DNA from: Zootoca vivipara | Taxonomy: Eukaryota | Direction of reading: 5' to 3' | Assembly: GCF_963506605.1 (NCBI RefSeq) | Contig: NC_083290.1 | Location: 33,852,001-33,916,000, forward strand | DNA length: 64,000 nt | Part shown: piece after piece, positions 717 through 60,694 of the stretch | Layout of the letters: every line of letters begins with the position of its first letter | Position numbering within the stretch: position 1 is the stretch's first letter | The notes under the pieces: model-generated | Seen by the model: the letters and a program-made list of their open reading frames with translations, nothing else | Told to the model about the DNA's origin: nothing | Database searches by the model: none | Made by a program: the position numbers and the translations under genes

Positions 717-1163
717 CATAGCTGCCAAGTACCCCATTTCCCCCGGGAAACCCCCGTTTTTACTTACCTTTTCCCGGTGGTCCCCTGTATCACTTCGTCT
801 CCTGTTTTTCTCCGTTATTATCTCCTGCCGGCGGCCATTTTTTTCTTTCTGATTTGCCCTTCTATGGGCGCCAGAAATGGCCGCCGCCGGCTTCAAAAGT
901 CGCATCTACGCATGTCCAGAAGTGCATAGACGCGACTTCCGGTGTCGGCGGCGGCCATTTTTGGTGCCCATAGATGGACAGAGCGACACCGGAAGTTGCG
1001 TTGATGCACTTCCTGACATGCATAGAAGTGACTTTCGAAGCCGGCGGCGGCCATTTTTGGTGCCCATAGAAGGGCAAACCAACACCGGAAGTTACGTCGA
1101 CGCAACTTCCGGTGTCACATGGCTGCCGCCCCGGATTCTGCAGTCCGGGACTTGGAAGGAAAG
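717..1163 (+). mobile_element. Non-autonomous hAT-like element (CATAGCTGCCAAG family), copy 1
   Basis: Starts CATAGCTGCCAAG, ends with decayed CTTGGAAGGAAAG; perfect 8-bp TSD GTAGGAGG (709-716/1164-1171); homologous to 3434-3880 and 59134-59452. Confidence 0.8.
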
Positions 1164-1727
1164 GTAGGAGGGTTTTAACTCTTTGCCCCCCGCCCCCGCC
1201 CCCCCCACTGCAGACCTGACTCAGTTTGGCAAGGCCTAGCCTTGTTTTTTTGCATTGTATCCTCCCCCCATGGCAAATAGCAGGGCCAACCCCCCCCCTG
1301 ATCTAGGCGGTGCCATAGTGTGCAGGAATGTTTAAAGCCCTCTGCTCCCCATATCGGGGATCTTATCTGGAATGGGGCAGCTATGCCAACGTTTTCCTAT
1401 TTTAAAGGCATTCAGGCAATTGTTAATTACATGTGCAGCATCACATTGATCTGGGCCCCAATTTCTAAAGGTCCAAGGGAGAGAGCTCAGCTCTGAGCAA
1501 CTCACAATAAAAATTATAGCACAAGGCCATTCTGAAAAGGCTGAAATAGAAACCAAATACTACAGTTCGGAGCCATTTTAGTTAGCTTTAGCAACACAGA
1601 ACCATGCATCTAACTCAGGCTGCATCTACACAGCTATTTTAAAAACGCTCTGAAAATGTTCTGAAAAAAACTGTTTTTAAAGCTCACAATGGAAAATTTC
1701 ACAGAGTTCCAATTTCAGCTCTACAGT

Positions 1728-2113
1728 TAAAAGGTGACAGTAAAGGACCCTTGGATGGTTAAGTCCAGTCAAATATGACTATTGGGTTGCAGCGCTCATC
1801 TCTCTTTCAGGCTGAGGGAGCCAGCATTTGTCCACAGACAGCTTTCCGGGTCAGGTGGCCAGCATGACTAAACCACTTCTGGCGCAATGGAACACTGTGA
1901 TGGAAGCCAGAGTGCACAGAAACGCCGTTTACCTTTCCACTGCAGTGGCACCTATTTATCTACTTGCACTGTCGTGCTTTCGAACTGTCAGGTTGGCAGA
2001 AGCTGGGACAGAGCAACAGGAGATTACCCCATCGCATGGATTCAAACCGCCAACCTTCTGATTGGCAAGCCCAAGAGGTTCAGTGGTTTAGACCACAGCG
2101 CCACCCGTGTCCC
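1728..2113 (-). mobile_element. Sauria SINE, full length
   Basis: Minus strand begins GGGACACGGGTGGCGCTGTGG, contains GCAAGTAGATAAATAGGT core, ACCTTT-type tail; approximate TSD AGCTCTACAGT/AGCACTACAGT. Confidence 0.9.
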
Positions 2114-3282
2114 TAGCACTACAGTGCCACCTGGTGTCACAGCGTTATAACACATTTATAATGTTTTATTTTTACTAATGTAGCTGAGTCCTCAGCAATG
2201 TTCATACTGACTGGCTGAGGCTCTCCAGGGTTTCAGACCCAGCTTAGAGATGCTGGGGGTGGAACCTGGGACCTTCTACAAGCACAGCAGATGCTCTCCC
2301 ACTGAGCTAAAACCTCAGCAATGTAACATGTAGCACACACCAGCCAGTCACTTATTTCAAACCAGCAAATCTTAAAACCTTGCAGCAGCATTTCTTCTAA
2401 CATGATGGTGTACAGATTCAGGATGAGATTTTGCTAAATCCCAAATAGATGTTAAGCTACTTTATGAGTTACTTTGATGTTAGCAAATTTGTTTGTTTGT
2501 TTGTTTGTTTATTTATTTATTAAAAATGGTAGGCCAATGTTTGCCCATCTTCAATGTACGTGGGAGATTATTTCCCCCTCACAGTCCATGACTGTGGGCA
2601 GCTAAATAAATAGCGAGGGAGATAGTAAACTTGATTATTACCACAGTAACAGAAGAATGACTTATATAGGATCTTACAAATATGGCATCAGTTAGAACCA
2701 AGCTGGTGTCAGTGCTATCCTTAAAGAGAACCCACCTAACTAAATATATTGTCCAGCCCACATTTGATAGCATAGATGTGATTTACTACAGGGCCTTTTA
2801 AAAAAAGACAATCTAGAACTGCCTAATGGTATGTGATGATAATTTGTGCAAACATTGTATGTGGCTACAACACACACCTGCATTTTCCTTGTGGGTAAAT
2901 ATGTTCCTTTTTGCTTGTAGTTGCATTCCGTGACATTTAGAAGCCTATAAAGAGTGGGAGAAAGCCCTCAGAACTTGGAATTCGACAGCACTGATGTAGA
3001 AAAGTACCATATTTGCTTCTGATTAGAAACACTGGCTCTGTGGCGAGTACCACTGAGACAGCCAGGAGTGTCTTTGGCAAAGGGGGGGGGAGTTGGGTGG
3101 CACCTGGTTCACTTTTCACATTGTTATCAGTCCCTTTTACTATCACCTAACATCTGTCATGGCTGGTGCCCAATGTTGCTGGGAAGACAGAAAGGAGGGA
3201 GCCCAAACAATGGGTGGAGCCAGAGCCAATGACAGGCAAAGCCAAGTAATGCTACTTTTGCCCAGTGGCCTAACATGGGTTA

Positions 3283-3967
3283 CAGAGCTGTCTTAAGCGC
3301 CCCTGGCGCTGTGGTGCGCCGAATCCCTCCGACGCCCTCCTGCCCCGTTTTCCAGCGCTGTGGGCAGGTGGGCCCACAGCGCGGTTGCCATGAGCGCAGC
3401 TGCGCGGTGGACCGGCCAGGCAGTGGGGGTGGGCATAGCTGCCAAGTATCCCGTTTCCGCCGGGAAAACCCCTTTTTTCCTACTGTTTCCCAGCGGTCTC
3501 CCGTTTAGTTTTTAATCCCGATATTCTCCCTTAAATCGACTTCTGCCGGCGGCCATTTTTCTGGTGCCACTTTGCCCTTCTATGTGCACCAGAAAATGGC
3601 GGCGCCGGCGCCGGAAGTCGCTTCCGCGCATGACCGGAAACGCGTAAAAGTGACTTCCGGTGGCGCTTTGCCCTTCTATGGGCATCAGAAATGATGGCGG
3701 CGGTGCCGGAAGTCGCTTTTACGTGTTTCCGGTCATGCGTGGAAGCGACTTCCGGCACTGGCGCCGCCATTTTCTGGTGCCCATAGAAGGGCAAAGTGCC
3801 ACCGGAAGTTGCGTTCACGCAACTTCCGGTGTCGCGCGCTGCCGATCCCGGATCTTTCCGTCCAGGACTTGGCAGGTATGGGGGGGGGCGCAGCTTGCGG
3901 CGCCCTCCTGGCGGGCTGGCGCCGTGGTGCCCTGCGCCCCCCCAGCCTGAACGTAGGGCCGGCCCTG
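3283..3967 (+). mobile_element. GC-rich hAT-like element (CAGGGCCG family), middle layer
   Basis: Ends CAGAGCTG...CGGCCCTG; perfect TSD ATGGGTTA (3275-3282/3968-3975); homologous to 49814-50095. Confidence 0.8.
3434..3880 (+). mobile_element. hAT-like element (CATAGCTGCCAAG family), copy 2, innermost layer
   Basis: TIR CATAGCTGCCAAG...CTTGGCAGGTATG; TSD GGGGTGGG/GGGGGGGG. Confidence 0.8.
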
Positions 3968-4555
3968 ATGGGTTACCAGTGCCCAGAGCCGTGGCGGGGG
4001 GGGGGAGGAAAACAGATGGAATAAGCATGCACGTTCAACTGTCTAATGGCATCCACATCACCTGGGAGACCACAGCTGCAGAGATAAGAAAAGAAGAGTT
4101 GTTCCATTGTCTGGAGAGGTCACTTCCTGGCTTGCATAAAGAAGCCATTTTCAATGAACCCAGCAATAGAAACACACAGCTGTATTGAGGCAACTCCGGG
4201 TGTTGAAATCTTGCGCCCCTAACAATTTTGCACCCCTGGCAACTGCCCCTATGCCTCCCTACACTACGCCACTGCTTTTGCCCCACCCTCCTCCCTACTG
4301 AGTTCTGTAGGGGCAACTCTGGGACAATGGAGGGGAAGCTGACAGGCAGTGCCATCATCTGGACTGCCTAGGAGTAGTTAGGTGGGTACGAGTTGGCTGA
4401 AAGCAGACTGAGACTGATGGGTCATTGTCCTATTTGGCCTAATGAATCAGCCTCCAATATCGCACAGCATATGGCTTTTGCATGACTTGAATTTTGGAAC
4501 TGCCCAAATGTTCTTTCTTAGCTTCCCGTTTCCCCCCTGTAACTGCCCTGTCTGG

Positions 4556-5243: not shown

Positions 5244-5302
<59 letters not shown>

Positions 5303-6219: not shown

Positions 6220-7776
6220 CAGTGGAACCTCGGTTTACGAACACCTCGGTTTACGAATTTTCGGTTTACGAACCATCATAAACCGGAAGTGTAAACCGAG
6301 GTTTCCAAGGCCTGGGCCACAGCTGCGGAGGTGCTCTGATGCCTTCGCGAGCACAGAGCGATGCAAGCGCGCACAGAGGGTGCCGTCTGCTTTCCCCTCC
6401 TGCTCCCGACGCCGCTCCCCGACTCACCTCCGCCACCACCGAGCCAGGCTGCCCGCCCTGCTTGGAGTTGATCCGGCGTGCCTGGCTGCCGCCTCCTTCC
6501 CCGACCCTGGCGCTCGCCTCCTACATGCCCGCCTTGCTCCTTTTAACTGCCGGGCTTATTTATTGGGGGGGCATTCATACCTCGGGGCCGCGCAGAAGCT
6601 TAAAGCGGCGTCCGTGAAGCTTTCGCCAACCCCTGACCCAAAGCAGCTCCCGCCGGCAGAGGCTGTGGCCTTCGAAGGAAGCGCTTTCTTCTTCAGGGCG
6701 CTGCGGTTCGTTTAAAAGTGCTGCCGGGAACTGCACCTCCGCGAGGGGATAAAGCGCAGAGCCAGGGATTCTTTCGAGGGAGAAACGAAACGGCAGAGGC
6801 TGTAGGAATCCGGCTCATTTCGATCCTCTCAGGGAAACTTCCATGTGCTTTATCCCCTCGCGGAGGTGCAGTTACCGGCAGCCCTTTTAAACGAACCGCA
6901 GCGCCCTGAGGAAGAAAGCTGAGGATGAGCTGCCATTGCCGGGCTACTGCATGCCCAGCAGGGCCAGGATCTCGCGACGCTGTTGCCCACTGAGGCGTCA
7001 CTGCTGGGGTGGCTGCTGCTGCAGGCAAGAGGCAGCCTGCTGCCGGTCAGGGCGGGTCATGTCCGGGGCTGAGGTCTTCCCGGCAGCCCCTGCGAGCAGG
7101 GCCAGGATCTCGCGCCGCTCTCGCCCGCTGCGGCGTCGGCTGCTGCTGCTGCTAGCAGCAAGAGGCAGCCTGCTGCCGGGCTGCTGCCGGTCAGGGCAGG
7201 TAATGTCTGGGGCTGAGGTCTTCCCGGCAGGGCCAGGATCTCGCACCGCTCTCACCCGCTGAGGCGTTGCTGGTGGGGCGGCGGCTGCTGCTGTGGACAG
7301 GAGGTGGTGGCGTGGTTTGACGCCCGGCGGGCCCAGGGCTCTCCCACCAGCAGCAGCATGAGGAAGAGCAAGGGGATTGGGGCTGGCAGGAGCCGCATCC
7401 TGGCGCCCAGCTCGGCAGTGGTGGCAGCAGCAGCCCGGCCAGGACGCAGGCTGATCGGGCGCGCCGCGGCCGGCGGGGCGGCCCTTTAAGCGGCTCGAGG
7501 CGGGCTAGGCAGCCGCTCGCTTCCTCCAGCCCTGCCCTCCGCCGAGCGACGGTGAGGGGCCCTGAGCACGTGCAGAGTGCCTCCCCTCTGCCAGGAGCGT
7601 AAAAGACAGTAAAATTTGTGTTGCCTTAGCCCCCTAAGGCATCGTTTTTCCTCGTCTGGAACGGATTAATCCACTTCCCATTACTTTCAATGGGAAAGTT
7701 TGCTTCGGTTTATGAACACTTCGGTTTATGAACAGACTTCCGGAACCAATTGTGTTCATAAACCGAGGTACCACTG
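6220..7776. mobile_element. Tc1/mariner (pogo/Tigger-type) non-autonomous element with ~1.3 kb GC-rich captured cargo
   Basis: TIR CAGTGGAACCTCGGTTTA...TAAACCGAGGTACCACTG, TA on both sides; ends match the 241-bp element at 40350-40590. Confidence 0.85.
6950..7398 (-). pseudogene. Captured BMP8-like (BMP5/6/7/8 group) exon-1 fragment, partly triplicated
   Basis: From ATG at 7398: MRLLPAPIPLLFLMLLLVGEPWARRASNHATTSCPQQQPPPHQQRLSG*ERCEILALPGRPQP; copy 2 RRSGRERREILALL/GLPGRPQPRT*PALTGSRLP; resembles recalled BMP8 [31 protein letters not shown]..SRLP; stops fall at CGA>TGA-type positions. Confidence 0.7.
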
Positions 7777-8063
7777 TATTGTGATGCTTTGGTGGGTAAT
7801 TACCGAGGGTAATTATCATCCAGGGCCAGCTCCAGGTCTGAGGTGGAGCCCTTCTGAGGGGAGGGTGCTATCATGCCTTACCTGTTGAGTAGGGCAGGGG
7901 TTCCCAACAAAATTTTCTCGAGGACCCCTCATTGAGCCGCTATTGTGACAAGGACCCCCATTAATTCCGGCCATGACAGCAGATTTTTGCCCTGCTTCAG
8001 GGCGGCAGCGCCCGTTGGCGAGCTTGGCTTTCGCGCGCTTTTTCTCCCCTCACGAGGCGGAGC

Positions 8064-8634
8064 CAGGGGCGTACCCAGGATCAAAACTGGGGGGGCAGGG
8101 GGGGCAATGCACAGTAGGGGAGGGGCCACATGTATCCAAATTTTGCAGTGATCCTCCAAAACAAAGGAGAATGCAAGTAATAGGGAAACATGTGCTTCAT
8201 AATGAATATATTGGTGAAAATAACATACAAAATGCAGAAATTACTTGCAAAAATGTAATGTCACACAAGAAGCTTTAGAAGAAATGTGCATTGAAAGGCT
8301 GCAGTTTTTTTGAGGGTTTTTTTAAAGGAAAAATTTGCAAATTGCTAAAGAAACAACCAAATTTAAGATTGGAAAAATCAGGAAATGGAGAGAAATGAAA
8401 TGGACAGGTACTCACAATACTGCATCACTGTGTTCAGAGATGTTACTGACTGACAAGCCTAGGAAAGCTTGCAGTGGGAGTGAATTTCAGAAAACACAGA
8501 AAACACATCCCAAACTTTCAGTGCATAAAAATTGAGAATGTCAGCAAAAGGGAATCTAAGCAAGTGTCATTTTCATGTGTGCCATTTTTTGCATAGTCAG
8601 TTGCTGCTGTTTAACGTGGTGAGCAAAAACAAAC

Positions 8635-8676
<42 letters not shown>

Positions 8677-9251
8677 GCTCTGCTCCCTTGCATTGACATG
8701 GGGGGGGGGAGGTTTGCTCACTAAATTCCTGCACAAAATTACCTAAAAACATGCCAAAGTGTCATCTAAAAGCATGCCACGGGCACGTAGGAAAATGAGA
8801 GGAAGCTGCGACTGGGGACTTCTTTCCGGGCAAGGGCGGAAAGAACGAGCCCCACATAGCAGTAGCAGCAGCAGCTCTTCCCTTTGGCTTGCTGGGCTGC
8901 TGTTGTTGCCCCTCCGGCCAGCCTGCCCCGCGCCCTCCAGCCTGCCCCGCGCCAAGGAAGAAGCCGGCCAAGAGCAGCGCTGCCTGCGGGGCTGGTGGGC
9001 GGAGGTGGAGCACAGCCCAGCGGAGCAGAGCGCGAGTTCGGCGTTCCCGCAACGCCACGCTCTCTGGTTCCCCGCCGCGCTTGGCCTTGCCGGAGGGCGC
9101 GACGGGGAGCTGGAGGGAGGACGCGGCGCGGCGGGCGGGAACGGTGAACTTGCGCTCCGCTGGGCTGTGCTCCGCCTCCGGCTCTGCCCACCAGCCCTGC
9201 TTCTAGGGAGGGGCAACTGCCCACCCCTTCCCCGCGCTGGGTACGCCCATG
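8064..9251. mobile_element. Nested hAT-like element carrying mixed genomic cargo
   Basis: TIR CAGGGGCGTACCCAG...CTGGGTACGCCCATG; perfect TSD GGCGGAGC (8056-8063/9252-9259). Confidence 0.85.
8635..8675. repeat. (TAT)n microsatellite
   Basis: Direct read. Confidence 0.95.
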
Positions 9252-10898
9252 GGCGGAGCAAAGAGAAGCTGAATGAGGCGGAGGGAAGAGCCTTTCCGCC
9301 TCCGCCTCATTCAGCTTCTCTTTGCTCCGCCTCGTGAGGGGAGGAAAAAGCGAGCGAAAGCCAAGCTCGCCAACGGGCGCTGCCGCCCTGAAGCAGGGCA
9401 AAAACCTGCTATCCTCTTGTAAAAAGCCGCGGGGAGCACTGGGCGGCGGGTGGCGGGCAGGCTGGCCAGCGCCCCTCCATTCTGGCTCCGCCAAGTTGCG
9501 GGCCCCTCTGGCATAGCTCGCGGACCCCTGGGGGTCCGCGGACCACCTGTTGGGAAACACTGGAGTAGGGAAACAGTGGCTGTACTCTGGTGAACACTCA
9601 GACACTTGGAGACTCCATTTAAATTTCCCAGAGTGCCCCTGATGTAGTATCACTCTAGGACTGCGTTGGGAACCTAAAACGACATTTCTAGCATGCCTGA
9701 AACTTATTGGAGCACTGCAAACGTCTAGCTCAGGTATGGCTGCCATGCACTCTGCTTTACAGAGCACATCCGTGTATTTTTGGCAGGGCTGGGTGGTGGG
9801 TGGACTTCCAGCCCATGGACCTAATCTGGCCTGCCAGGCTTCCTTATCTGGCTTATCATAGCATTTTGGGCAAGCCTACTCCTAACATCACACATATGTG
9901 TTGCATATGCATTCTAACACTGTGACACCAGAGGGTGCTGTGGAGTTCCGTTTTTGCCAACCCAATTTCTCCTACAAAGTTTACAATGCGTTGAACTGAA
10001 ATGCCTTTTTGATATGTCTAGATCCAGCCATCTTCTTTAAAACCACACCAGCAGTTTTTTGGGGGGGTTTTTTTAGGAAGAGCTGGGACTGCCCAACAAC
10101 TTGTTGCTCATGAGGCTACTCCTCCAATATGGACCCCCTTTTTCAGTTCTTGCAGAAACCCCTTGGATTACTTGGCTGTTGGGCACCAGTAGTTCTTCAG
10201 TCTATGTGCCAGAGGGCGATCTCTCATCAGCTTTTGCTTACTGGGGCCTTAATTATTCCATCCTGGTGTCTTCCCTCCTCCTCCTCCTCCTTTTTGGATA
10301 TGGTGAAATGCAGTTAACAGTTCTCTATGGCACTAAGAACCTGGTGATGAAGGGTCCTTGATTATAGCCAGCCAGCTCTTTTGGCCTCAGACACTTGACT
10401 GGAAATAGCTGCCGTGTTCATTCTTTCATAGCCTTCTCTGTAGAGGATATTCAAAGGCTGGGCTCCAAGTCTATGATATCCTGGAGAACTAGGGAAAGCA
10501 AATGTGTTAGAAAAGAATGTGGCTCAAAGGCCAACTGGCTACAGCTCAGTCGGAAAAGATGTTTAAAGCTGTGGCCCAAAGACCATGAACCCGAGAGAGA
10601 GGAACCACAGAAGCTTATTCTTTTAGATGTTGCCAAGGGCTGCATCTTATTCTGTATGTAGATCCAATGGTATAAAGTAAGCTAACAATAGCATTTGTAC
10701 CTGGCTAACCATTGTGGCAAATCATCTGAACAAATGGTGGGATAGCCTTAACTATGTTTTTTTCTCACAGCAACCTTCTGGGCTAGACCATCATTATTTC
10801 CGTTTTTCAGAAGGGACTGCTGAAGCTGAGACATAATGGCCCAGTGTGGACATCATGCTAACCCATAGTTTACTGCTTTAAGATTAAGCCTTGGTGAG

Positions 10899-20815: not shown

Positions 20816-21130
20816 TAGTCTTCCATTACTGACCTTTCGTTGCTCAAAGAACCGTCAAATACAGTATATTCTAGGGTGAACTTCAGTTTGCAGACATAGC
20901 ACAGTTAACTTGCCTCCATGCTGCTGGTCCCATTGAAATGGAAGGAGAGATACTGATAGTGTAGGACATGTAACAACTGGTGGGGATATTTTTTATCAGG
21001 ACTATGGTGCATAGGACAGGCTTGTATCAAACCCCAGGTTCAGTTCCCAGCATCTTCAGGTAGAACTGGGAAATACTCTTCCCTGAAACCCTGGAGAGGC
21101 ACTGCCAGTCAATATGAGATGGACCCGGGT

Positions 21131-21266
21131 CAGCCTTTCTCAATCTTGGGCCCACAGATGTTTTTGGACTTCATCTCCCACCAGCCCTGGCCACTGGTAC
21201 TGCTAGCTACGGATGGTGGGAATTGTAGTCCAACAACATCTGGGGACCCAAGGTTGAGAAAGGCTG
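21131..21266. mobile_element. hAT-like MITE inserted in an old tRNA-derived SINE
   Basis: TIR CAGCCTTTCTCAA...TTGAGAAAGGCTG. Confidence 0.75.
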
Positions 21267-33212: not shown

Positions 33213-33215
<3 letters not shown>

Positions 33216-40349: not shown

Positions 40350-40590
40350 CAGTGGTACCTCGGTTTAAGAACAGTCCGGTTTAAGAATGATTTGGTTTAC
40401 AAACTCTGCAATACCAGAAATAGTGTTTTGGTTTGAGAACTTTACCTCGGTCTAAGAACGGAATCCGAATGGTGGAAGGGCACCGGTGGCGGGAGGCCTT
40501 ATTAGGGAAAGTGTGCCTCAGTTTAAGAATGGTTTTGGTTTAAGAATGGACTTCCGGAATGGATTAGGTTCATAAACCGAGGTACCGCTG
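40350..40590. mobile_element. Tc1/mariner (pogo-type) MITE, short relative of 6220-7776
   Basis: TIR CAGTGGTACCTCGGTTTA...TAAACCGAGGTACCGCTG, TA TSD. Confidence 0.9.
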
Positions 40591-41555
40591 TACTCTGCAC
40601 TGTCAATTGGCTTTTTCTTGTTTCCATGTGCTTTCACCTCCCTCTAACCCCCCCCCCCTATAATTTTTAGTTGTCTTGAGAAACTTGAAGCTTTTCAGAA
40701 GAAGCCCCACTTTGAATTGTCTGTATCTGACGTTGGAAGCTGTCTTATATGAAGGATCCCAGTAATACCTACTCTGACTGGCAGCAGTTCTCTAGTGTCC
40801 TAAATAGTTAATTTCCCCCACCCTACCCCATCACTTTCTACCCGGATTTTTTTTACTGGAAGATACCAGAGATTGAACCTGAGAACATCTCCATGCAAAA
40901 CATCTACTTTACTACTGTGCTATTAATACAGCACAGAATGGACTAGAAGGTAGGCAATTGGAGTCGAAACTGTATTCACGTTAGGCTAATCATAAAGGGC
41001 ACGGCTTCTCTGTAGCTTTCAGTGCTTGACTAGGAGTGAAGATGCCGCTTCCCTATGGCGTTTGGTCACCCTGGCTTTTTCATCCTCTCCCACTGAATCA
41101 TTGTGCAGCCTTGGTCATGTCCCTCGGCCTTCATTCTCCTCCTATAACTTGGGGAGTTTCCTCCTGGAGCTATTTCCCAAATATTGACAGTTAAGGTTGT
41201 AAAACACTTAGAAGCACTTGAGGAACATCATATAAATGTGTAAGTAGTAAGTGATATGTGGTGAGAATGGCTTATGAGCATCTTCAGTGTAGCGCCTGAG
41301 CAACTGAAGAAAAGACGCAGTAGTAAAAGTTAGACATTCTCTGGTCCTGTGCTTTTAAACATCAGCTTGGTATGGAGCAATGATCAGCGTATGGATAGAA
41401 GTATTATCATTTGCTGATGTTTGCCCATAAAGCTGCTGTGAGAAAGCACAGAACAGGAGCTGGCAATGGATCTGAAGCAGTCTAGCAATGCCAAGCTTGA
41501 CTCAGGTGGCATTGCACAAAGGATGCTGAGACAAGTACCAGTAGTTAGTTTTATT

Positions 41556-41963
41556 CAGTGGTACCTCCGGTTGCGGACGGGATCCGCTCTGGAGGTCCGG
41601 TCGGATCCCAAGGTTTCTGCAACCTGAGGACCGCTTCTGCGAAAGCGCAGACCACTTCTGCGCATGCGTGCGCGGCAAAACCCAATAAAATGCTTCCCGG
41701 TTTGCCCCGCACGCATCCCAAAGTTTACGTAACCAGTCGTACCTCGGAAGTCGGACGGAATTTGTTCCAGAAGTCTGTTCAACTTCCAAAACATTCGGAA
41801 AACAAAGTGCAACTTCTGATTGGTTTGCAATTGTGGCAGGCGCACCGGAAACAATAGCAGAAGCCGTGCCAGATGTTAGACTTCCAAAAAAAGTTCAAAA
41901 ACCGGAACACTCACTTCCAGAACGTTTTGACTCCCAAGGCGTTTGGGGGCCGAGGTACGACTG
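41556..41963. mobile_element. Two abutting pogo-type MITEs (left half 41556-41733; complete element 41734-41963)
   Basis: CAGTGGTACCTC start; second TIR pair CAGTCGTACCTCGG...CCGAGGTACGACTG. Confidence 0.8.
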
Positions 41964-42305
41964 CACTGTGCTACCCGCCAACCACTTTGCCAACTCTCCT
42001 TCCTCCACACCTGCCAACCCATTCTCCCTCTACACCTGAGCAAACATCTCTCCCTTTACACCTTGCCCACCCCCTGGCCTATCCCTTCACAGTTTGCCTA
42101 AACCTCAACTTGCCCTTCATTCACAGCTCTCCCCAAGCCTCACCCCCTTTTAAAGCAGGGGGGGCTGCACTTCAGAGAGGGGTTTGGCAAACTGCTCTCT
42201 GAAGCACCTCCCTCCCTTAAACAGCTTGCCTGGCCATTTGCCATCCATACTGATTGTTCACCTGCCTACTGTTCTGTAGTCACACTGGAGCTGGCGTTGC
42301 CACCT

Positions 42306-43348: not shown

Positions 43349-43586
43349 CAGCGGTACCTCTACTTACGAATTTAATGCGTTCCGAACGCACATCCGTAAG
43401 TCGAAAAAAATTGTAAGTTGAATCCCATAGGAATGCATTGGGAGAAAAAATTCGTAAGTCGAAGCAACCCTATCTAAATATTCGTAAGTAGAAAAAATCT
43501 AAACCGCATCCAAGATGGCGGACGGAGCTCTGTTCGTAAGTAGAAACATTCGTAAGTAGAGTTATTCGTAAGTAGAGGTACCACTG
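43349..43586. mobile_element. Tc1/mariner (pogo-type) MITE
   Basis: TIR CAGCGGTACCTCTACTTACGAAT...ATTCGTAAGTAGAGGTACCACTG, TA TSD; related to 20522-20815. Confidence 0.9.
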
Positions 43587-43935
43587 TAGCTAACTACTGC
43601 AGACCCTCTGTTTTTCAAAAGCCAATTTAAAGTGCGGCTTATATTCATGACCTTACGAGCGTCAGAGCGGCGCCCCACCCCCCGAGCAGCCCAGGAGCGT
43701 GGGGCAATGGCACACCACCTGCCTGCCTCTCTCAAGCCTCTCCTGAGTGCCGGAAAGAAGGGGGCAGGGGGGAAGGCTGCCAGCAAAGCGGTGTGGTCCC
43801 CCCCCTAGGAAGCAGACTGGGTATTGTCTTTTCCCCCTCCCCCCTTTCAATTTTAAAGGTGTGGCTTATTTTCAGGTGTGGCTTATATTCGGGCCAATAT
43901 GGTAATTCCCAGTTCTATCTGGAGATGCCTGGGAT

Positions 43936-44180: not shown

Positions 44181-46431
44181 ATTGAGACCTTCTGCATGCG
44201 GAGCAGATGTCCAACCGCTGAGCTATGGCCCCAACCCACCCCAAGGCTCACTATTTTCTTCTCATCAGCCAAAGCCCAGGACAAACCTTGCCTTCTGCTC
44301 ATGGTTTGTTTGAAGAGGAACCTACATGTCATGAGCAGGGATTTCAGCCCCCAGCCCCACACGCTATCGGCTGCACCCCACTGTTTATTGGAAATGATCA
44401 GATGGAAAAGCTGGAGGCAGAGCCAGGAAAAGTTCTGCTGTTCCACTGCTTCAGAACTTGCAGTGCTGACCCCCCCCCTTTCCACTCTTGTCAGAGGTGT
44501 GAATCTGAAAAATGATGAAGCTGGTTAAGGGAGCCAAGGCAAACAAAATAATTTTAGCCTACATGCTGCTCTTGTGGAGACAAGAGGGTGACTCGCAAAT
44601 GTTCCCAGTAAGCTCTGGTCACCTCCCTGACCTGCTTTGGTGGTGGGTAGAGAAAAGGCCTCTTTAAGCTATGGGATGTAAGAAGTAGCCAGAAGCAACT
44701 TGGGGAGGGACCAAAGAACACAGGCTTTTGTCTTTCTTTCCTTGTTATGGGGGTGGGGAAATGGCCTCCATTGTGCAACTCTTTTCTCTCTTTCTGCTGC
44801 TGTAATCTTGGGGAGGGTGAATTTGCAACTGAATTCACAGGCACTGTTAAAGGACACCAAAAAAAGAGAAAGAAGTGGTTTTGTTGTTTCATGGGTTTTT
44901 CTTTCTTTCTCTTCTTCTTCTTTGCTAGGGGAAAATGGCCCTGCTCATTCTTTGCCTTGTTAGGATCAAGACAGATTAGCTGTTTTTAAGGTGTTCTTTT
45001 GAGTCTGACGTCTATAGCAACAGTTGGAGGCAGGATCAGAATGTGAAATGGTTGTGGGACCCTGAATGCTGAAGCGTCAAACAAATCGAAGTGTCCAAGG
45101 GTTGGGAGGTGACAACACTGAATGTGTTGGGTGGGTGGGTGTATAATGTGTAATTGGGTGTTTTGGGGAGGTAGCAGAGTAAGATACTGAAATCCCACTC
45201 CAGAGCCACACCTGAGATGTGGAAAGTTCAGGTGGCACTTTTTCTTACTCATTCCTGCAAGCTGCAAATTACCGGTACTTTCTTTTAGCCGTTGTGCATC
45301 ATCTTTCCAGCCAGAGCAGCTATCAAGGCTGCTTACAATAAGGTACAGATAAAAAAGGATACAGAGCTAACCTGTATGAGTGATAAAAGAAGCAGTAATC
45401 ATAAAAAAGGAGTAAAATTGAAGGCTCGGTTGAGTAAAAATGACTCGGCAGTGGCCATAGCAGCTAAATTTTAACAGATCTGCGGCCACCATGCCCTGTA
45501 ATGTTGTTGAGCTGCGGGCAAGTCTCATTTCAGTTGTTTGTGGGGGTAGAAGCAGCTGTTGGTTGCTAATGGGTTAACATTCTGCAGCCCCCTGGTTCAT
45601 TTTTATAAACATCTGCTAAAAGTAGAAGATTTGGATTTTCTCTGTTCACAAAGGATTTGCATGTCCTTGATTCAAGGGCTTCTGATGGGTTTTATTTCAT
45701 TCCCGGATTAATAAACTCGGAGTAACCGGCTGCCGCATGGACAGAGTTACTTAGCTAGCTATCAGCATTAGTTGGCATTTGGGAGTGGTTTCAGACTGAA
45801 GCCAGCTCCAGTTCCTGTGTGTGTAAGCACTAAGTGGGGGAGAATTGACAGTGGCAGAACCCTTGAAATTATTCCTCCTGCTGGCAGCCTCCTGGAGAGA
45901 TGATGGAGAATGGAACTGAAGGTCTTTGAAATGTGCTGGGATAATGGCAGAGGAAGGGAAAAAAACTCATTTCACCAGGTCATAAAGTGTCCAGCCTGAA
46001 TTTAGCTCTTAGCCAGCATGTGGCAACCTGTGTACTGTACAAGGACGGGGGGGGGGGGGGGATGGGAATTGATGTATCGCAGCCTGTGTGCCCATGACAG
46101 TCGACAGTAGCCCAATGACCCTAACATCTTCTACTTCAGGATTGTTGACATGTGGCGAGCAGGAGGATACATTGATCTTTCTGCATCTGAGGTCTGAACC
46201 GTGAAGTAGTAGTAAAGCATGCCACTAGGCATGTGAAGAGTGACTTTCTGTATTCACTGAAGAATTTGTAGCTTCACTGAAGAATTTGAAACCTAAGGGT
46301 TTCTGGGTTAAAAGATATGACTTGGAGGCAGACTTGAGCCTTATGTTTCGCAGGGCCATGAAGTCTCTTTTTCTCCATCTTGCCCCCAGGAAACTTTGTT
46401 CCATCTCTCCTAGTTGCTGCAACTTCTAAAG

Positions 46432-46567
46432 CAGGCATCCCCAAACTTCGGCCCTCCAGATGTTTTGGACTACAATTCCCATCTTCCCCGACCACTGGTC
46501 CTGTTAGCTAGGGACCATGGGAGTTGTAGGCCAAAACATCTGGAGGGCCGCAGTTTGGGGATGCCTG
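46432..46567 (+). mobile_element. hAT MITE (CAGGCATCCCC family)
   Basis: Long near-perfect TIRs; perfect TSD TTCTAAAG. Confidence 0.95.
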
Positions 46568-47501
46568 TTCTAAAGACATTTCCTTCACAATTCTGAAGCT
46601 ACATTGATGAGGGCTAGAAACTTGATATTTTTAAAAGTGAGTTTAAGCAACCAGGGTGGGATAGAAGAATGCACTCAAAGCCTTGAAAGTAGCATTCTCT
46701 TCTGCCCTCCCCTTCCCACATCCTTCACTGCTCAAGCCTTGTCTCCTCCTCCTCAAAGCCTTGCCACTCTGCTTCAGACATCAGACCTTCTAAGGAGGAC
46801 TCCCGACGCTTTGTGTCTTCCATACAGCACTTAATACTGGTGTATAATGGCTGGTGTATAAGAAATGCCAAATGGTAGCAGTATAATTGTTTGCAGGGCT
46901 GTTTGCTCAAAATGTGGAGTTTTCCAATTTGTTTAGGAGCAGTAGCCCAAATGCTAAGGGGGCTGGAGCAATGCATGAGACTATTTTGTTGGGAAGATGC
47001 ATAAGTGGGGGCTTGATATGACAGAAGCTTGCAAACTTATGCATCGTGTGGAGAAAGTGGATATAGACCTGTTTTCCTACTGCATTTCAAAATGCCAGAA
47101 CTAGGGGTCATCCAGGGAAACATGCAGAACATTTATAGCACTATTATACTATTTTAGGGGAGTATGGGGTGTTAGGGGAGGGGGTAGTACCTTTGAGGGA
47201 GACACATAATGCTCCTTCTGGGGCAGTTTGCCTGTCTTTGGTCCCCACCTGCTCTCAGCTCTCACCTGTGGCTCCTAGAAGCTGTCGGCATGTGACAGTG
47301 GCCACATCCCGGAGAATGGCTTCGACTGGCAGGCTAAACCAGGTGAAGTTAGTTCATGGGTCTCAAACCTTCAGTGAGTTACAGACTTCCCCTGCATGAG
47401 AAGACAGGCTCTGGTGAATTGAGTGTTCAAGAAGGTGGTTTCTGCATGTGCTGCAGAGGGAAGTGAGGGCTCATCAACCTGGGAAAGTGTTCCATCTAGG
47501 A

Positions 47502-47637
47502 CAGGCATCCCCAAACTTCGGCCCTCCAGATGTATTGGACTACAATTCCCATAATCCCTGGCCACTGGTCCTGTTAGCCAGGGATCATGGGAGTTGTAGG
47601 CCAAAACATCTGGAGGGCCGCAGTTTGTTGATGCCTG
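47502..47637 (+). mobile_element. hAT MITE (CAGGCATCCCC family)
   Basis: TIRs; perfect TSD ATCTAGGA. Confidence 0.95.
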
Positions 47638-48734
47638 ATCTAGGAGAAGGAAAGTTCTGATCCTAAACATCCACTGCCTTGCAAGAGAAGAAAAGGCTAA
47701 GGAGTAAACCCAACACAAATCTCAGTGGAGTCCCTAAGACAGTTGGATTTGGCACCTGGTACACTGCCTTCTGGCAACTCCTGCAGCCAAGCTGGTGTCA
47801 AACGTTTTGCTCTGCTTTCTTTTGGACCACATCAGCGAGGCCGAGAGGGGGTCTTTTCGTCTGGGCAGCTCAGGAGTTCCATAAACGCTGCCTAGGCTTG
47901 TGCCCTGAGCAAGTCACTTCGGTGCTGCTAATGCAGCCGTTTTACTTCACCACTAAAGAAATACTCCATTGTCTCTTGAGGCAGATGGATGCCAACGACA
48001 ATACCACTTTGATTGTCTTGGCTTCCACCAAAGACTCCTGGGAACTGCAGTTTAAGGATGCTGAGAGCTGTTAGGAGGCTCATCGCAGAGATCAATTTCC
48101 CAGTGCCTGTAGCAAACTACAATTTCCAGTGGTTTAAAATGGATGGTGTGGATGCGACCTCGGTGTCTCTACCAGCTAAGGCTTGCAAAGCACGAAAGTG
48201 CATAAGAAGGACCTGGTGAAATCTCAGAAAGCACAGGGGTGTGTGTGTCCAAATTAGATTTCCAGTGGGTGGGGCCTCACTGACATGCAATCGCATTGTT
48301 CCCTCCCCACAATTAGGCTAAGCAGAATAAATTATACATAAGGTGCAAATGGGCTTAATTTCCATAATTTATACAAATTGCAGACAATGATGGCCGAGGA
48401 AATTTCTGTGCCTGAGGCAGAAAATGAAATGTTGCATACTCCCCCTGCACAATATAAATAGTAATGGAGCTGTCACCTGATTCATCAATTAATTGGCAAA
48501 GATCTTTGTTTCTTTCTTAATTCATTTATTTAAATTTGTGGTTGCATATAAACAGATGCTCCGAAGCATTTATCTTTTCTTAGGCGATGCTTGGGTTGTA
48601 CTAGAGATCTTCGCCTTAGAAGAGGCCTTCTTTCCTGTGTGGGAAAGATGGTAGGAATGCTGGCAGGATCTACCAGGTCTGCCTATCTAGATCTGCCCTG
48701 GGTAGGAAGAGGTCTTTCCTGGGTCTCAGCCGGT

Positions 48735-50667: not shown

Positions 50668-50670
<3 letters not shown>

Positions 50671-53228: not shown

Positions 53229-55941
53229 CTGTATGATGGACTGAGTGGGTGTGATCTAGGCACAAAGTTTTCTCTTGCCTGAGCAGCAGAATGGTACCTT
53301 CTGCCCTTGAGGGTCTTTCTACCTTCTCCACAATAAACCTTCACAGATGCCTGACTTGGATCCAAGTGCAGGCTTGGCAACTCTGTGATTGGTCCCAGCA
53401 CCTTGTCAGTTCGTGGAAGAACCATGGCACTGTGGTAGACGCTGAGCACATGTTTTTGTGTGCAGAAGGTCCCATGTTCAATTCTTGGCATCTCCAGGGA
53501 TCAGATAGCTGCCAGCAGGAAAGACCACTGCCGGATACCCTGGAGAGTAGTCAATACTGGACTGGGCTACCTGGATAAATAGTGGCGCAAGGCAGCTGTG
53601 CTCCCAGGGACAATTTAGCTGTTGAATAGCAATTCTCCTCTCCCCTCAAAAGTTTCTGCAGCAATGAAGCCAGTGCAGTGTTTGCAATGGGTTTGTGCTT
53701 CCATTAATCTCCCTCAAAAAGTAATAATTAAAAAAAAAATGTTCCAGACCTCTGCAGGTGCTTTTGTCAACCTAACAGGAACCTGCTAATTGCTCTCACG
53801 GGTGGCTAATTTAAGCCTTGTGCTGTCATCTCTCGCTGTAGTGTTGGAAAATAAATGTTGGGATGCTTGGATGCTAAGAAAAGCCAGTGGGCCGCAGCAC
53901 ATAAATCAAGGACCACGAGTTGCCTTCTAAGCCTTCCTTTCAGCATGACTCTTGTGGCTGCAGCTGGGTTTTTTTTTGGCCCGTAGCGCCTTGTCATGAG
54001 TGGAAACTGCTGGTGTTGGTTTTGACACACCGGTTGTGTGAATTAGCCCTAAGGCTATGCATTAGAGCACAGTTCAGCTAGCATGGAAGTCACTACAGAG
54101 TCCCATAGATCTTAGTCTTTAGGCCATGTCTGTAGAATAACAATCCATTTAACATCTGTGCGTGGCAGGGATGAGGCTGCTGTTGGCATATGGAGTGCAG
54201 CTCAAACTTCTCTTTCAAAAACAAATCTGGATTTCTCTGAGAAAGGGCTAAAGGAATTATTTGAAGTCTTCTGGGGAAAAAAGAATCTTAAAATGCCCAG
54301 GATTTTTTTTAAAAAAGAACCCAGTGTATTTAAGCTTCTCAGAAACAATCTGAGCATCTTGATTTTAAAGGGCGAGGTTGTTTGCAGAGAGGAAGAAACT
54401 CTGACTTAGCAACAAGCTTTTGGAAAAGAAGCTTTTGTGTGCTTTGAAATATTTCTCGCAGATGTAGCTGTTCTCCTCCTCCTTCCCCTCCCCTAATTTT
54501 ACACGTTCTGAATCTAAAGAGACAAAGTGAGCTACATAACTCTGGGGATATGTAGTTAAGGGTGGCGAGAAGTGAATAGATTTCATGCCAGCTAAACTGC
54601 TAAAGTAACTTACTACAGTTAAAAATGAGCATACCTTTCTTTTAAAAAAAACATGTTCAGCTCCTGATATTGGGGGCTACCTTCTCAGAAACCTCAGTTT
54701 ATTTCCCCATTACTATTTAAAGGGATGTCCTCTTATTCATTACCGCCCCCGGCTAATGGAATGCTGAGGAATGATGACATTGGACTGTTACAAAAAGTAT
54801 AGCCACCCCCAACCTTCCAGATGTTTTGGACTACAGTTGCCATCACCCCTAATTGTTGGCCATGTGGGCTGGAGCTGATGGGAGTTGTTGTCCAAAAGAT
54901 CTGGAGGGCGCCTGGTTGCGGAATACTGCTCTACACCAGAAGTCTTTGAAAACCCAGGCTCATCCCACTTTAACCCACGTGTGCATTTGGGGACCCCTTT
55001 CTTAATCTTTTGCCATATATTTGCGTGGTGGTAGTGCTGTGGTTAACGTGACCCACCGTGGAGGAGGCTGTCACCCTGTTGAGATTTCCAACGCACCATC
55101 TGAAGACCATTGGGCTACACCGTATTGTAATTAAACAGTGTGAAGCGATTTCCTGCATTTCAGGGCCACCTGCAGTTGAGGCAAGGCTCAGGTATGTATC
55201 TGCTTAACAGTAGTACCACATGCCTCTTGAAGACAAAGTGACGCTCTGCCGGGAAACTGTTCCCTTTCTCCGTTCTGAGATGCGATAACTCTGTCTGATT
55301 TGCGGGGCAGACGCGACAAGCCTGCCAGATGCATATCGCATGATGAGGCAGAGTGCTGAAATTGGCTTAAAGGGAAACCCGAGAGTCCTCTATTGGAGGC
55401 CGTGCCCCGTGAAAAGGGATTTCCTAGGCAGCAGGGAAATGACTATACTAGGGGCGGCCCACCCCCCAGATTCCCTAGCTCAGGGATAACCAGCACGGTG
55501 CCCTTCAGACATCATAGGACTCCAACTCCCATCAGCCCAGGCCAGCACGGTCAATGGTCAGGGATGATGGGAGTCGGAGTCCAACGCCATCAGGAGGGCA
55601 CTGCATTGCCTGCCTGTGCCCCAGCTCATTCTGACAGCATAGATGGGCCTTTGCCAACCTGGCACCCTCCAGGTGTTTTGGACAGCTGGAGCTTCTGGGA
55701 GTGGTAGTCCAAACCTGGAAGTCACCAAGTTGGAGACAGCTGGCATAGATGCCAGATGATTCAGGAATTACAAGAGGAGGGGAAGGGAAAAGAAATCAGT
55801 GCGTCCTTCTTAAAACACAAGTTTAGTCAACGTGGTAAAGGTGGAGAACATATTTTTGGATGTCCAGATGTTTTTGTACTCCAATGTCTGCTGGCTGCAG
55901 GCACCATGGCCAGTGGTCAAGGAATGAAGGGAGTTCTAGTC

Positions 55942-56075
55942 CAGGCATCCCCAAACTGCGGCCCTCCAGATGTTGGCCTACAACTCCCATGATCCCTAGC
56001 TAACAGGACCAGTGGTAGGGGAAGATGGGAATTGTAGTCCAAAACATCTGGAGGGCCGAAGTTTGGGGATGCCTG
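55942..56075 (-). mobile_element. hAT MITE (CAGGCATCCCC family) inserted in an older MITE
   Basis: TIRs; TSD TTCTAGTC/TTCTAGTA. Confidence 0.9.
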
Positions 56076-57297
56076 TTCTAGTATAACAACATCTGGAGAG
56101 CCATTGGTTCCCCATCTCTGTGGCAAGGTATTGTGCTATCACCTGTTGCAACTGGGGGCTCTTGCCATAATCTTTGAATGACTTTAGGAGCCGCGGCTGT
56201 GTTTGTGCCCACTTTTGGAGCACAGAAAGCTGCCTTATAGTGAGTCAGATTATCAGTCCATTGAGCTCAGTACGGCCTACACTGACTGGTAGTAGCTCTC
56301 TAGGGTTTCAGCCCGGGGGGGTGGGGGTGTCTCTCCCAGCCTCACCTGGAGATGCTGGCGATTGAACCTGGAGCCCCTTTGCCTGTGAAACAGATGCTCT
56401 ACTACTGAGCTATGACTCTTCCCAGAGACAATGATGGTAGGAACATGGGAAAAGGTCTTTTTCGAGCCAGATTTTCAATCCATCTAGCTCCATATTGTCT
56501 ACACTGACTGGCAGAAGCTCTCTGGGGTTTCAGGTATGAAGTCTGTCCCAGCCTTGTCTGCAGAAGAGAGAAATTGCACTTGAGATCTGAGGCATATTTA
56601 TTTATAAAAGTATTCGTATGCTGCTCTCTCACAGAATGGCAGGGCAGTGCACAACAACATTTAAAAACCTTTTAAAAGCAATGCAGAACAATTATCAAAA
56701 TGGCCAGCCACTCAAGGAAATTCTAAACAACTGCCTGTCAGCATAAAAACGTCTTTAAGAGACACAGGAAAGCCAAAAGCAAATCATCGCTGGAAGAGTG
56801 TTTACGGTATGGGACTTGTGACACTAAATGGGCGACTTCTGGTCTGAATGAACTCAGTGACGAAGCTGGGATATTTTATTTTAAATTAGTTTTTATTGAA
56901 GTTTTTTGTGTTACAAAACATACAGATAAACTGGGAAAGGTACCTCTATCGCCTCCACTGTCAGTTTATAGTCTTTTTCACAGTTTCCTTACACTTAAGT
57001 GAAGGATGCCTTTTTCATAGACATCTTGCAGTTGGGGGAAAAGACAGGGGAGGAGAGAGAGGTGGGGGTATTGTTCTTTTGTTCTGTAGCCTAGTGAGTG
57101 TAGGGGTTTGTGCCTGGGTCCTTTGCTTCTACTGTATATATATCTATATATCTATATATTGATATTGCGAGAGATCAGGCGATCCCAAGCTTCGTTGGCT
57201 GCATTTAGTTGACTGCAGTGTGACTTGTTTGTATGCATTGGGCGGGCGGGCGGGGGGGAATAGGTTGTTGGGTCAGGTTAGCATGTTGATTCGTATA

Positions 57298-57603: not shown

Positions 57604-57644
57604 TATTGATTTGTATGATTTATTGATTTACCTTTACCTTTTTA

Positions 57645-57822: not shown

Positions 57823-59133
57823 GTGTGGGGATAGGTCATTGTCCTGTTGTGCTCTGTATGTAATAAAGAGGAACCACACCGGGGTGAAGACTTCTTCCTG
57901 TGCTTGCCCCATGCTAGTTTAAGTTTGTTGGTTAACTTCTCTAGTAGGGCTGTTTCCCATACATTTTAGTCCTGGTGGTCTATATGGACTCAGGTGATCC
58001 TTAAGGTGTCCTGAACAGATCCCTTGATGCTTATGGTGAGAACTACGACATGTGAGTGTGCTGTTTTCTTCAAATTGGTATCAGCCACAGAGAAAATAGG
58101 CATCATTCATATTCAGTTAGAGCTGGCACAGACAGAGAGGCCTATGATCCCTGGGGATTCTCCCCCCCCCCCCAATTTTCAGTAAGTAAACAGGTTTTTG
58201 CTCCTTCTTGCTTTGCTGTGTAGCTCATTGCAGCTTGCTCCGGTCGTTCCCCACCACACTGATGGCATTTACCCACTTTTTATTCTAATCCTGCTTTGTC
58301 TGTTTGGCTGCAAAGCTGCTGTTTGTAATTACACTTAGGACGGAAGGCATTCCCCCTGCCCCAGCCACTAATTCTCCATCTCTTCCCCCCAGATTTCCTC
58401 TGGATTTACGGAATATTTTCAATGGCGAGAAATTATCTGTGATGCAAACGGCTGCTTTCAGAGCCACTGAAATTAGAGGCAGCTTAAGTGCGCTCCTCTG
58501 GAAAAAGCGCTACAGGAGATCTTGATAATAACAGCATCGCACGTCTGTGCCGTACCTTCAGTGCTCTCTCCCGCCAGCACATTGAACACGATGCTGCTAT
58601 TTTAACCATGGGTTTGTAAAAGGAATGTTGAAGTTGGCGTCATTGCGAAACCCGCCGCAGGATCAGCAAGGAGATCTTGTTTTGGCATGTGTGGGATAAA
58701 TTTCTGTTTGAGTTCTCAGCTGCGAAATAGCTTGGCTGGACTAGCAATGGGGATTGAGGGCAGTTGGCATCCTAAGAGTGGGCGCAAGTTTGCAGGCTGA
58801 GATGCATCAGAAAAAGCGTCCAGAGAAGTAAAGAGGCATGAGGTCTGATGAATTCTGACCGTTATTTCCCTTATGCACACCCCTTGGCCTGGTTCAGACA
58901 ATCCTTATAGCCTTCGCAAACCATGGTTTACTAAGCAGGGAACGAGCACTGTGGCTGGGCACTCCCTCCCCTCCTCCTGCTGTACAGTGGCTTTTGACAT
59001 GAAGATTTTGGCTTAAGGCAGGGTCCCGTTACACCTGAACCAGAAAACTCTGACTCTGATGTGGTTAACCATGTTGCCTCACCTTGTTTTCCAGGGTATC
59101 AGACAGGGTGTCTCCTCCAGCTTTACCTGCAGA

Positions 59134-59452
59134 CATAGGTGCCAACTCCCAGATTGAAAAATCCGGGATCGGCAGCGGCGCGGCACCGGAAGTCGCACTG
59201 CGGCCATTTTGGAACTGGGCAGAGCTGCACCGGAAGTTGCTTCTACGCATGCTCTGCCCATTTTCAAAATGGCCGCAGCGCCAGAAATCACTTCTGCGCA
59301 TGTCCAGAGACTCCAGACATGCGCAGAAGGAGCCTCCCCGGGCCGGTAAGAATCCGGGGGATTTACGGGTTTTTTAAAAATCCGGGCTGCCAGTGGGAAA
59401 TGGCTGGAAAAATTAGGGTTTCCCGGGGAATACGGGAGACTTGGCAGCTATG
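59134..59452 (-). mobile_element. hAT-like element (CATAGCTGCCAAG family), copy 3
   Basis: TIR CATAGGTGCCAA...TTGGCAGCTATG; perfect TSD CCTGCAGA. Confidence 0.85.
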
Positions 59453-60449
59453 CCTGCAGATGATGGCGATTGAGACAGGGACCTTTCACATGCAATGCTC
59501 TATCCCTGAGCTGCAGCCTTTCCCCACTGTTTAGAGCATGAAATGCTAGGCTAGGTAGATCCTTAGTCTTATCAAGCAGAGGTTGTTAACGACTTGGCAT
59601 TTGTAAATCACCAGAAAATGCACACACATAAATGCCATTCTCAACAACCATTGCAAAAAGAATGTAGGCTAGCAGCCGATGTTCACATTAGGCAGAATGT
59701 GGTGGTAGAGTTCCTTGGGCTGTGCCACTTGAGATGGCAGGGGGGGGGGATGATGGTCCTATTTTCAAATGCTCGCCAATACAAAATGTTCATTGCATGT
59801 TGAAAGCAAGCACGTATGGTTAGCAACAGCCATCTCCCTGATGTGCTAATTTATTACCAGCAGGGAGGTGTGTTATATGGGTGAGTATTCAAAAAGATGT
59901 GCACATACATATATAGACACTCCAGAATTCTACAACCTCGTTTATACCATCTCATTTTGGATAATGAGTAGAATGGCTCTCAACCTCTGGAATTTTTCAT
60001 ATGGCTGACACAGCCTCTTTTTTTTTTTTACAAACTCTGAAACAACCCATCTAATGACATCTTTTAGTACGCTGTATCTGGAGGCAATGAAAGTGGTGTT
60101 TATTTAGGCACTTTTAGACTCTGGATTTGCAAGTCTTGTGTGTGTTGTGGTGGTGAGGGGAGGGTTGCCCTTCAGATGGCGATGTGCATTACTTCACTTA
60201 TTTCAAAATGTGGTAAGCCACCCACCCCCCAACGCTGCATTTGGGAACTTTCCTGCTCATTCTGCTGAGTGGGGCCCTGGACCTCTGCCCCCAAAGGCCC
60301 ACTCAGTGGGGATGGAGTCTTTTGGAGATCAATTTGAGGGCTGGGCTGAGTCTTGGCCTAATGTTGGAACAGGGAGGCTGGTGTGCTTACCTAGGAGTGC
60401 CAGTTTTAAAGGGGAAATCATTCAAAATGCTTCTACAGTCATGCCTCAT

Positions 60450-60694
60450 GTTACATCCGCTGCGGGTTATGTCTTTTCAAGTTACGGACGCGCCGAACCC
60501 GGAAGTCCTGGAACGGGTTACTTCCGGGTTCGTTGCGCGTGCATGCGCAGAAACACTAAATCACACTTTGCGTATGTGCAGAAGCGCCGAATTCCGTCAC
60601 ATGTGTGTGCAGATTTGGCACTTCAGGATGCGGCCTTTTCATGTTGTGAATGGGCCTCCGGAACGGATCCCGTTCGCAACCAGAGGTACCACTG
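60450..60694. mobile_element. Pogo-type MITE, left end degraded
   Basis: Right TIR GCAACCAGAGGTACCACTG+TA, matching the left TIR at 41556. Confidence 0.75.

Follow-up and report, generated by a model that had tools for sequence, protein, structure and literature searches.

Short non-autonomous DNA transposons of the hAT and pogo/Tigger types carry words typical of CpG-island promoters in a 64,000-nucleotide stretch of the Zootoca vivipara genome (contig NC_083290.1, positions 33,852,001 to 33,916,000; hereafter the window, in whose coordinates features are given). These words match the ETS, NRF1 and YY1 motifs of housekeeping promoters and occur in two transposon superfamilies, as the original prediction held. 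We put at about one in two the probability of the following account, which is drawn from sequence: the elements bear ETS, NRF1 and YY1-like words as sources bound by host factors would be mobilised more, and the resulting copies lose CpG like methylated repeats. Its direct basis is the identity of the families, the enrichment of the words, the CpG decay of copies, the occurrence of an ETS site in the left ends of Tiggers that code for transposase, and the lack of the ETS/NRF1 module at the ends of the coding hAT partner.

The window belongs to a 1.44-Gb genome (48 contigs) in which CpG is depleted, with an observed/expected ratio of 0.36 in a random 1 Mb sample made up of 100 evenly spaced stretches of 10 kb each. 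The motifs were searched as consensus words, namely CCGGAAGT for ETS, GCGCATGCG for NRF1 and ACTACAAYTCCCA for the THAP11/ZNF143 type. In the random sample, elements with terminal inverted repeats (TIRs) make up 39,309 bases (3.9%) and hold 1,832 of 17,256 CpGs, and yet contain 54 of 58 occurrences of CCGGAAGT, 30 of 31 of GCGCATGCG, 11 of 16 of AANATGGCGG and 64 of 73 of ACTACAAYTCCCA. The median TIR-element share over 1,677 8-mers containing one CpG is 5%, and CCGGAAGT ranks fourth, behind three 8-mers that look like terminal-repeat words. Extrapolation from 58 per Mb gives tens of thousands of word copies genome-wide. The list of factors follows the available text of PMC3820735 and bioRxiv 10.64898/2026.05.04.722487; the NRF1 site sequence is quoted in PMC3820735 and that of THAP11 in PMC3627581.

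Enrichment was judged on an unselected panel of 31 TIR families represented in the random 1 Mb (4 non-TIR entries dropped, entries above 700 bp excluded), which is the fair test because a larger panel of 61 families was partly hand-picked and includes 5 targeted families and 10 hand-added sequences. ETS words are present in 8 of the 31 families (4 hAT-CATAG, 3 Tigger, 1 hAT-CAG), against 0.26 expected and a maximum of 3 in 1,000 dinucleotide shuffles, and CCGGAAGT is the first of 5,136 8-mers and found in all three TIR groups. The NRF1 word occurs in four families where 0.13 are expected, the GC box is also enriched (5/31), and a relaxed YY1 word reaches 3/31 (p=0.022). Control families of non-TIR repeats yielded ETS in 0/30, NRF1 in 0/30 and YY1 in 1/30. 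Across the 61-family panel CCGGAAGT again comes first, among 12,753 8-mers and in 23 families; CCAAT is found in 5 of 28 Tigger and THAP11/ZNF143 words in 3 of 25 hAT-CAG families, and no AP-1, GATA, MEF2 or CTCF word appears. ETS and NRF1 words in TIR families thus exceed chance, and the predicted enrichment over dinucleotide shuffles stands for these two motifs but not for strict YY1.

In Tiggers the ETS word occupies a fixed slot. Allowing for decay, 15 of the 53 left-end clusters (a few of the 53 being mis-typed right ends or false ends) carry AACCCGGAAGT directly after two or three direct repeats, and 13 of these 15 have offsets of 48-50 or 64-65, i.e. two offsets one repeat apart. The direct repeats that flank the slot vary between subfamilies, and in four of the 53 clusters a YY1-like word takes the place of ETS. 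At right ends, the ETS word is one variant among several (3/15 clusters). Thirty loci of transposase-coding DDE_1 elements were examined; seven have a recognisable 5' TIR, and five of these carry the site or a decayed form of it upstream of the transposase start. Because the site is also found at the left end of coding elements, the left-end ETS site of Tigger MITEs (miniature inverted-repeat transposable elements) is inherited. One coding locus (L198) is a broken 2.7-kb Tigger with both TIRs, and the assignment to DDE_1 and CENP-B-type transposases draws on Pfam for L196 and L199. Several Tigger transposase genes (L193-L199) have long intact frames of 549-648 aa with only one clear TIR and are possibly domesticated; elsewhere, several loci (L221-L225) hold pogo-type transposase copies that are almost identical to one another, with open frames of 452 aa and a TIR type that differs from that of the motif-bearing Tiggers.

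The hAT elements have a different history. Coding partner loci (L175, L185, L169, L408 and L409) have both ends in common with the hAT-CATAG MITEs, and a CATAG-type 3' end is present in three of four related PF05699 loci, together with a homologous 5' end. No ETS or NRF1 word was found in these ends (3' end, three of the four related loci; 5' end, two loci). Because the ends of the coding partner are without these words, the hAT-CATAG interior was probably a later acquisition, to judge from these few copies. An origin of the CATAG group from P elements was considered and dropped, since hAT transposase loci have the same ends. At L408:1-1000, about 500 bp from the 5' end of one coding hAT copy, CpG-island-like host DNA contains NRF1 half sites and a pair of YY1 words in opposed orientation.

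An NRF1 module of 14-25 nt is common to two hAT groups and Tigger, and the likeness between groups around it spans 14-40 nt in all. The two hAT groups match over up to 40 nt (85%) around an ETS-like word and an NRF1 half site, and Tigger families contain 21 nt of this hAT interior module. A 16-mer consisting of the NRF1 half site and 7 further bases occurs 1,211 times genome-wide, against 0 for its control, and in all three groups: 16 of its loci divide into 10 hAT-CATAG, 4 hAT-CAG and 2 Tigger (9, 2 and 1 among the first 12 consecutive matches). Three 14-mers are likewise common to all three groups, with none in 100 shuffles. Total sharing of 8-mers across the groups is not above the shuffle mean (101 vs 112), and only longer words exceed it. 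Because the common stretch is longer than the NRF1 motif, these data suggest either exchange between groups or selection on a longer site. Independent convergence would confine the likeness to the motif itself, and here it extends over the whole module; together with the inherited Tigger site, this weakens the description of the families as unrelated and convergent, which is only partly true. In the sharing tests, the ETS site at Tigger left ends and those of the hAT elements had no flank of this kind in common.

CpG decay was measured as a ratio, transitions at CpG relative to those at other C/G bases, with bootstrap intervals. Family A, a hAT MITE present in the window, has a ratio of 8.2 (6.5-10.7; 29 copies picked by end pattern); families C (hAT), T1 and T2 (both Tigger) have ratios of 12.0, 9.4 and 7.6 (29 best hits each, uncorrected), and family D (hAT) 8.0 (30 pattern-picked copies). 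For SINEs (short interspersed nuclear elements), of which the main one in the window is presumably of the lizard Sauria/POM type, the ratio is 10.2 (8.9-12.2; 69 copies), and for five SINE subfamilies 9.6-14.7. Motif CpGs decay as other CpGs do in three of four informative families (A, 49/230 vs 195/910; T1, 76/172 vs 397/925; T2, 68/139 vs 304/602); in family C they are less decayed (19/116 vs 189/667, p=0.006), in a best-hit set biased to the query. Because CpG is lost as fast as in SINEs, motif CpGs included, the copies are, on this measure, methylated in the germ line, although a small minority may be protected. The low ratio of the young family D rose from 2.8 to 7.3 on private changes (16 CpG transitions, 3 others) and was a subfamily artefact, and one older family D subcluster of six copies has a low ratio of 2.2 (1.1-7.2). 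Between MITE consensuses the ratio is 1.7, and between internal arms 3.0, against 9-17 for copies: source lineages keep CpG.

The unique flanks of window positions 200-4400 have no reads in two RNA runs, and reads on the window elements derive from other loci, with starts that could not be told apart. At a family A copy elsewhere (L410:1059-1500), 109 reads of one of the two runs leave the copy at one junction and resemble a transcription start, but 16 cross the other junction, and the likeness cut-off can produce a pile of this sort.

Under the account that we favour, the Tigger left-end site would go back to the parent element, where it would serve the transposase gene as promoter or host-factor site, with housekeeping factors driving this gene in coding Tiggers, and the interior ETS/NRF1 module would have been taken up by MITEs, multiplied through internal duplication and passed among families. 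GABPA/ELF, NRF1 or YY1 would then bind the rare copies that are unmethylated or newly inserted and give transposase access to them; the available text of PMC7605266 describes that NRF1, as well as GABPA/YY1, binds repeats in a methylation-dependent manner. Source elements, rather than the mass of copies, would be under selection, and most copies would be silenced. Such selection fits because the slot is fixed, the words are of housekeeping rather than tissue-specific factors and source lineages retain CpG. Several observations weigh against it. Two of the seven coding Tiggers have no left-end ETS site, and in some subfamilies the ETS word is similar to the Tigger direct repeat. Most TIR families are without the words, and the 23 of 31 unselected families lacking ETS are nonetheless well amplified; in the same panel strict YY1 is not enriched (1/31, p=0.25), nor are NFY, BANP, CRE and E-box words, and the control word FOX is marginal (p=0.026). 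Panel families are related within groups, so that family counts overstate independence and independent origins are few. SINE subfamily consensuses also have a low ratio (3.5), which makes CpG retention not specific to source MITEs, and the MITE consensus pairs are more diverged and noisier than the SINE pairs.

The words might instead be neutral cargo: one or a few pieces of a nested element or of a CpG-island promoter of the host would have been captured, duplicated into palindromes and swapped among MITEs, to which the words would be useless. The shared 16-mer and 14-mers and the 40-nt hAT match all speak for this, as do the lack of CpG protection in copies and the filler capture and recombination among non-autonomous hAT families described for Anolis in the accessible part of PMC3014272. 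It leaves unexplained why ETS holds a fixed position across diverged Tigger left ends and in coding elements, and why different families carry different housekeeping words (THAP11/ZNF143, CCAAT, YY1), and we consider it rather unlikely. That the words are subterminal repeats bound by transposase, resembling host motifs by chance, strikes us as quite unlikely. Pogo-like transposases do bind MITE subterminal repeats (available text of PMC1636448), some Tigger direct repeats read ACTT(A/C)CG, the left-end site overlaps a reversed half repeat, and the right-end word is one variant of several. The identical 8-mer is nevertheless found in both hAT and pogo elements, whose transposases differ in domains, and stays constant while the Tigger repeats vary; it is missing from the ends of the coding hAT partner, and the NRF1 and YY1 words are interior.

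The original prediction went further, proposing that copies mimic promoters and so remain open and unmethylated in the germ line. Motif enrichment is real, the family C motif CpGs favour it within the bias of that set, and MITE ratios are slightly under those of SINEs, with overlapping intervals. CpG transitions are, however, 7-12 times as frequent as non-CpG ones in the five motif families (A, C, T1, T2 and D, 7.6-12.0), close to the 10-15 of SINE subfamilies; motif CpGs in A, T1 and T2 are not spared, none of 28 pattern-picked family A copies has fewer than four CpG transitions, and family D lost its low ratio once private changes were counted. This SINE-like decay leads us to reject germ-line protection for the majority of copies, and we hold the proposal to be highly improbable. 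Besides a lack of enrichment, the prediction had named as counting against it methylated, closed copies with normal CpG decay and motifs that are only transposase subterminal repeats: the CpG decay is what we observe, and the reduction to transposase repeats does not hold for the interior module.

Within the window, each word is present where it had been placed: CCGGAAGT at 989, 1085, 3611, 59186 and 60499, ACTTCCGG at 1105 and 3653, AAAATGGCGGC at 3593, GCGGCCATTTT at 951 and 59200, TGCGCATG at 59295 and 41659, CAAGATGGCGG at 43511 and GCATGCGCA at 60541. Some assignments change. The hAT copies at 717, 3434 and 59134, taken for one family, represent three related ones. Family A (717..1163; CATAG-type TIR, 8-bp target site duplication GTAGGAGG) has an interior made up of a ~96-bp unit, with ETS words at 935(-), 989, 1085 and 1105(-) and the YY1-like GCGGCCATTTT at 831, 951 and 1047; its exact 3' end occurs 1,746 times genome-wide, against 1 for the control. 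Family B (3434..3880), of the same TIR group and analysed as a single copy without consensus, has six ETS words (3611, 3653(-), 3706, 3748(-), 3802 and 3822(-)) and YY1 words at 3593 and 3765(-). Family C (59134..59452; target site duplication CCTGCAGA) has ETS at 59186 and 59230, YY1-like words at 59200 and 59266, and half NRF1 sites at 59295 and 59318(-) within the module common to other groups. The presumed NRF1 site at 59295 is therefore only a half site (TGCGCATGTCCA), and the full word occurs in none of eight hAT-CATAG families. Two of the three cited YY1 words, those at 951 and 59200, are of the ATGGCC variant and not strict ATGGCG, GCGGCCATTTT being AAAATGGCCGC on the opposite strand with a GCCATNTT core.

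Most of 30 hAT loci have the 8-bp duplication, which is shortened or lost at a few. The YARNG terminal motif given in the available text of PMC3014272 is present in the CAG group and at the coding partner's 5' end in L409, and the MITE ends CATAG, CATAC and CTTAC deviate from it. Among the joints listed in two contig sets, none corresponds to an empty site of the copy at 717 or of that at 3434. In the hAT MITE with the most copies (~140 bp, CAGG TIR; 64 in the random 1 Mb), both arms carry a word of the THAP11/ZNF143 type; this fourth housekeeping motif had been overlooked. An example lies at 46425-46572, with ACTACAAYTCCCA at 46469, and other window copies at 21124-21271, 30773-30920, 47495-47642, 55933-56080 and 63467-63614, with the word at 21217, 30817, 47539, 56026 and 63511, respectively. 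Outside the window, a 90-bp CATAG-type MITE (L026:156-246 and 22 other copies) carries a word resembling the BANP consensus, not significant in the unselected panel. Family D (L302-L330, e.g. L042:5362-5760) is a hAT MITE, GC-rich and very young, that carries NRF1, ETS and GC-box words and has 1,965 exact 5' ends; 10 of 29 best-hit copies are without a counted change from consensus, which suggests recent activity.

The elements labelled Mariner-type are of the pogo/Tigger type: their TA duplication and CAGT-starting TIR are those of elements with DDE_1 and CENP-B-type transposases. The T1 copy (60436..60695, TA duplication) has the left-end ETS slot at 60499 and a mirror copy at 60520(-); the T1 consensus has two NRF1 sites, both decayed in this copy, with a partial remnant at 60541, and the copy has 16 CpG transitions on 76 CpG bases, NRF1 sites included. 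T2 (41557..41735, one end missing) has an NRF1 word at 41659 and adjoins another Tigger MITE (41733..41964) with a CCAAT-box-like word, CTGATTGGTT, at 41817. In the MITE at 43350..43587 (TA duplication), the YY1 word at 43511 follows directly on three left-end repeats, the ETS position of other subfamilies, and in that at 40350..40591 an ETS word at 40550(-) is one variant of several in the right-end subterminal box. A long non-coding Tigger (6220..7776, plus strand) has ETS words in the left-end slot (6283) and right-end box (7736(-)); this element and a hAT at 7895-9562, both long and non-coding and bounded by TIRs, contain internal inverted repeats and GC-rich filler that was captured. The window also has a real CpG island (34400-35700), which contains GC boxes and probably a first exon, its ATG lying near 35391 and its splice donor near 35462; none of the exact ETS, NRF1 and YY1 words occurs in this island.

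If host-factor binding licenses source elements, this would help to explain how short non-coding elements whose interiors are orphan prevail over their coding parents, and methylation would have to mask the ETS and NRF1 words borne by transposons, tens of thousands by extrapolation from the 1 Mb and a large latent promoter store. Should the words prove neutral cargo, the elements would still be a clear instance in which hAT and Tigger MITEs have exchanged sequence. A wider generalisation is tentative and somewhat doubtful: that selection at the level of the element favours chromatin-opening CpG-island motifs (ETS, NRF1, YY1, THAP11/ZNF143 and NF-Y) in DNA transposons of different superfamilies in vertebrates, and that these trade a portable module between superfamilies, making MITEs the genome's main, methylation-silenced store of such sites.

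Amplification of factor sites by plant MITEs and motif-bearing transposons in frogs, fish and mammals are already known. Our literature search, which covered neither subscription papers, supplements nor Repbase/Dfam, returned no report of housekeeping motifs common to vertebrate MITE superfamilies, of a left-end ETS slot in Tiggers or of a hAT-Tigger module. As far as the available text of the cited papers goes, plant MITEs amplify sites for E2F in Brassicas and for bZIP60, PIF3 and TCP15/23 (PMC5950925); as here, non-autonomous TIR elements of several families own an outsized share of a factor motif. Unlike those, the present elements are vertebrate, their words are of the CpG-island housekeeping kind and their share is much larger (54/58, 30/31), whereas in vivo binding of E2F was demonstrated in plants and our case is known from sequence. 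The non-autonomous hAT and Tc1/mariner families of Anolis (PMC3014272) likewise have 8-bp and TA duplications, orphan interiors, filler capture and recombination between families, and the family D TIR is that listed for hAT-HT2_AC; the CATAG-type and CAGTGGTACCTC TIRs are not in those tables of that paper that we consulted, nor are promoter motifs discussed in its available text. Kolobok and piggyBac enhancers in Xenopus (PMC5655803), YY1-bearing repeats in Poecilia picta (PMC10760456), ZNF143 sites in MLT1J (PMC3627581) and retrotransposons bound by GABPA/YY1 once silencing is lifted (PMC7605266) resemble our elements as repeats whose host-factor motifs are mostly masked by silencing. Those cases concern single families or developmental motifs and come with chromatin data, whereas here several DNA-transposon groups share housekeeping words. 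Finally, ETS/GABP, NRF1, YY1, NFY and THAP11/ZNF143 appear in both published lists of cardinal or CpG-island promoter motifs (PMC3820735; bioRxiv 10.64898/2026.05.04.722487), and the site in the T1 consensus agrees with the NRF1 site of FMR1 that PMC3820735 quotes; unlike the promoters that carry them there, the elements described here are methylated repeats and not unmethylated islands.

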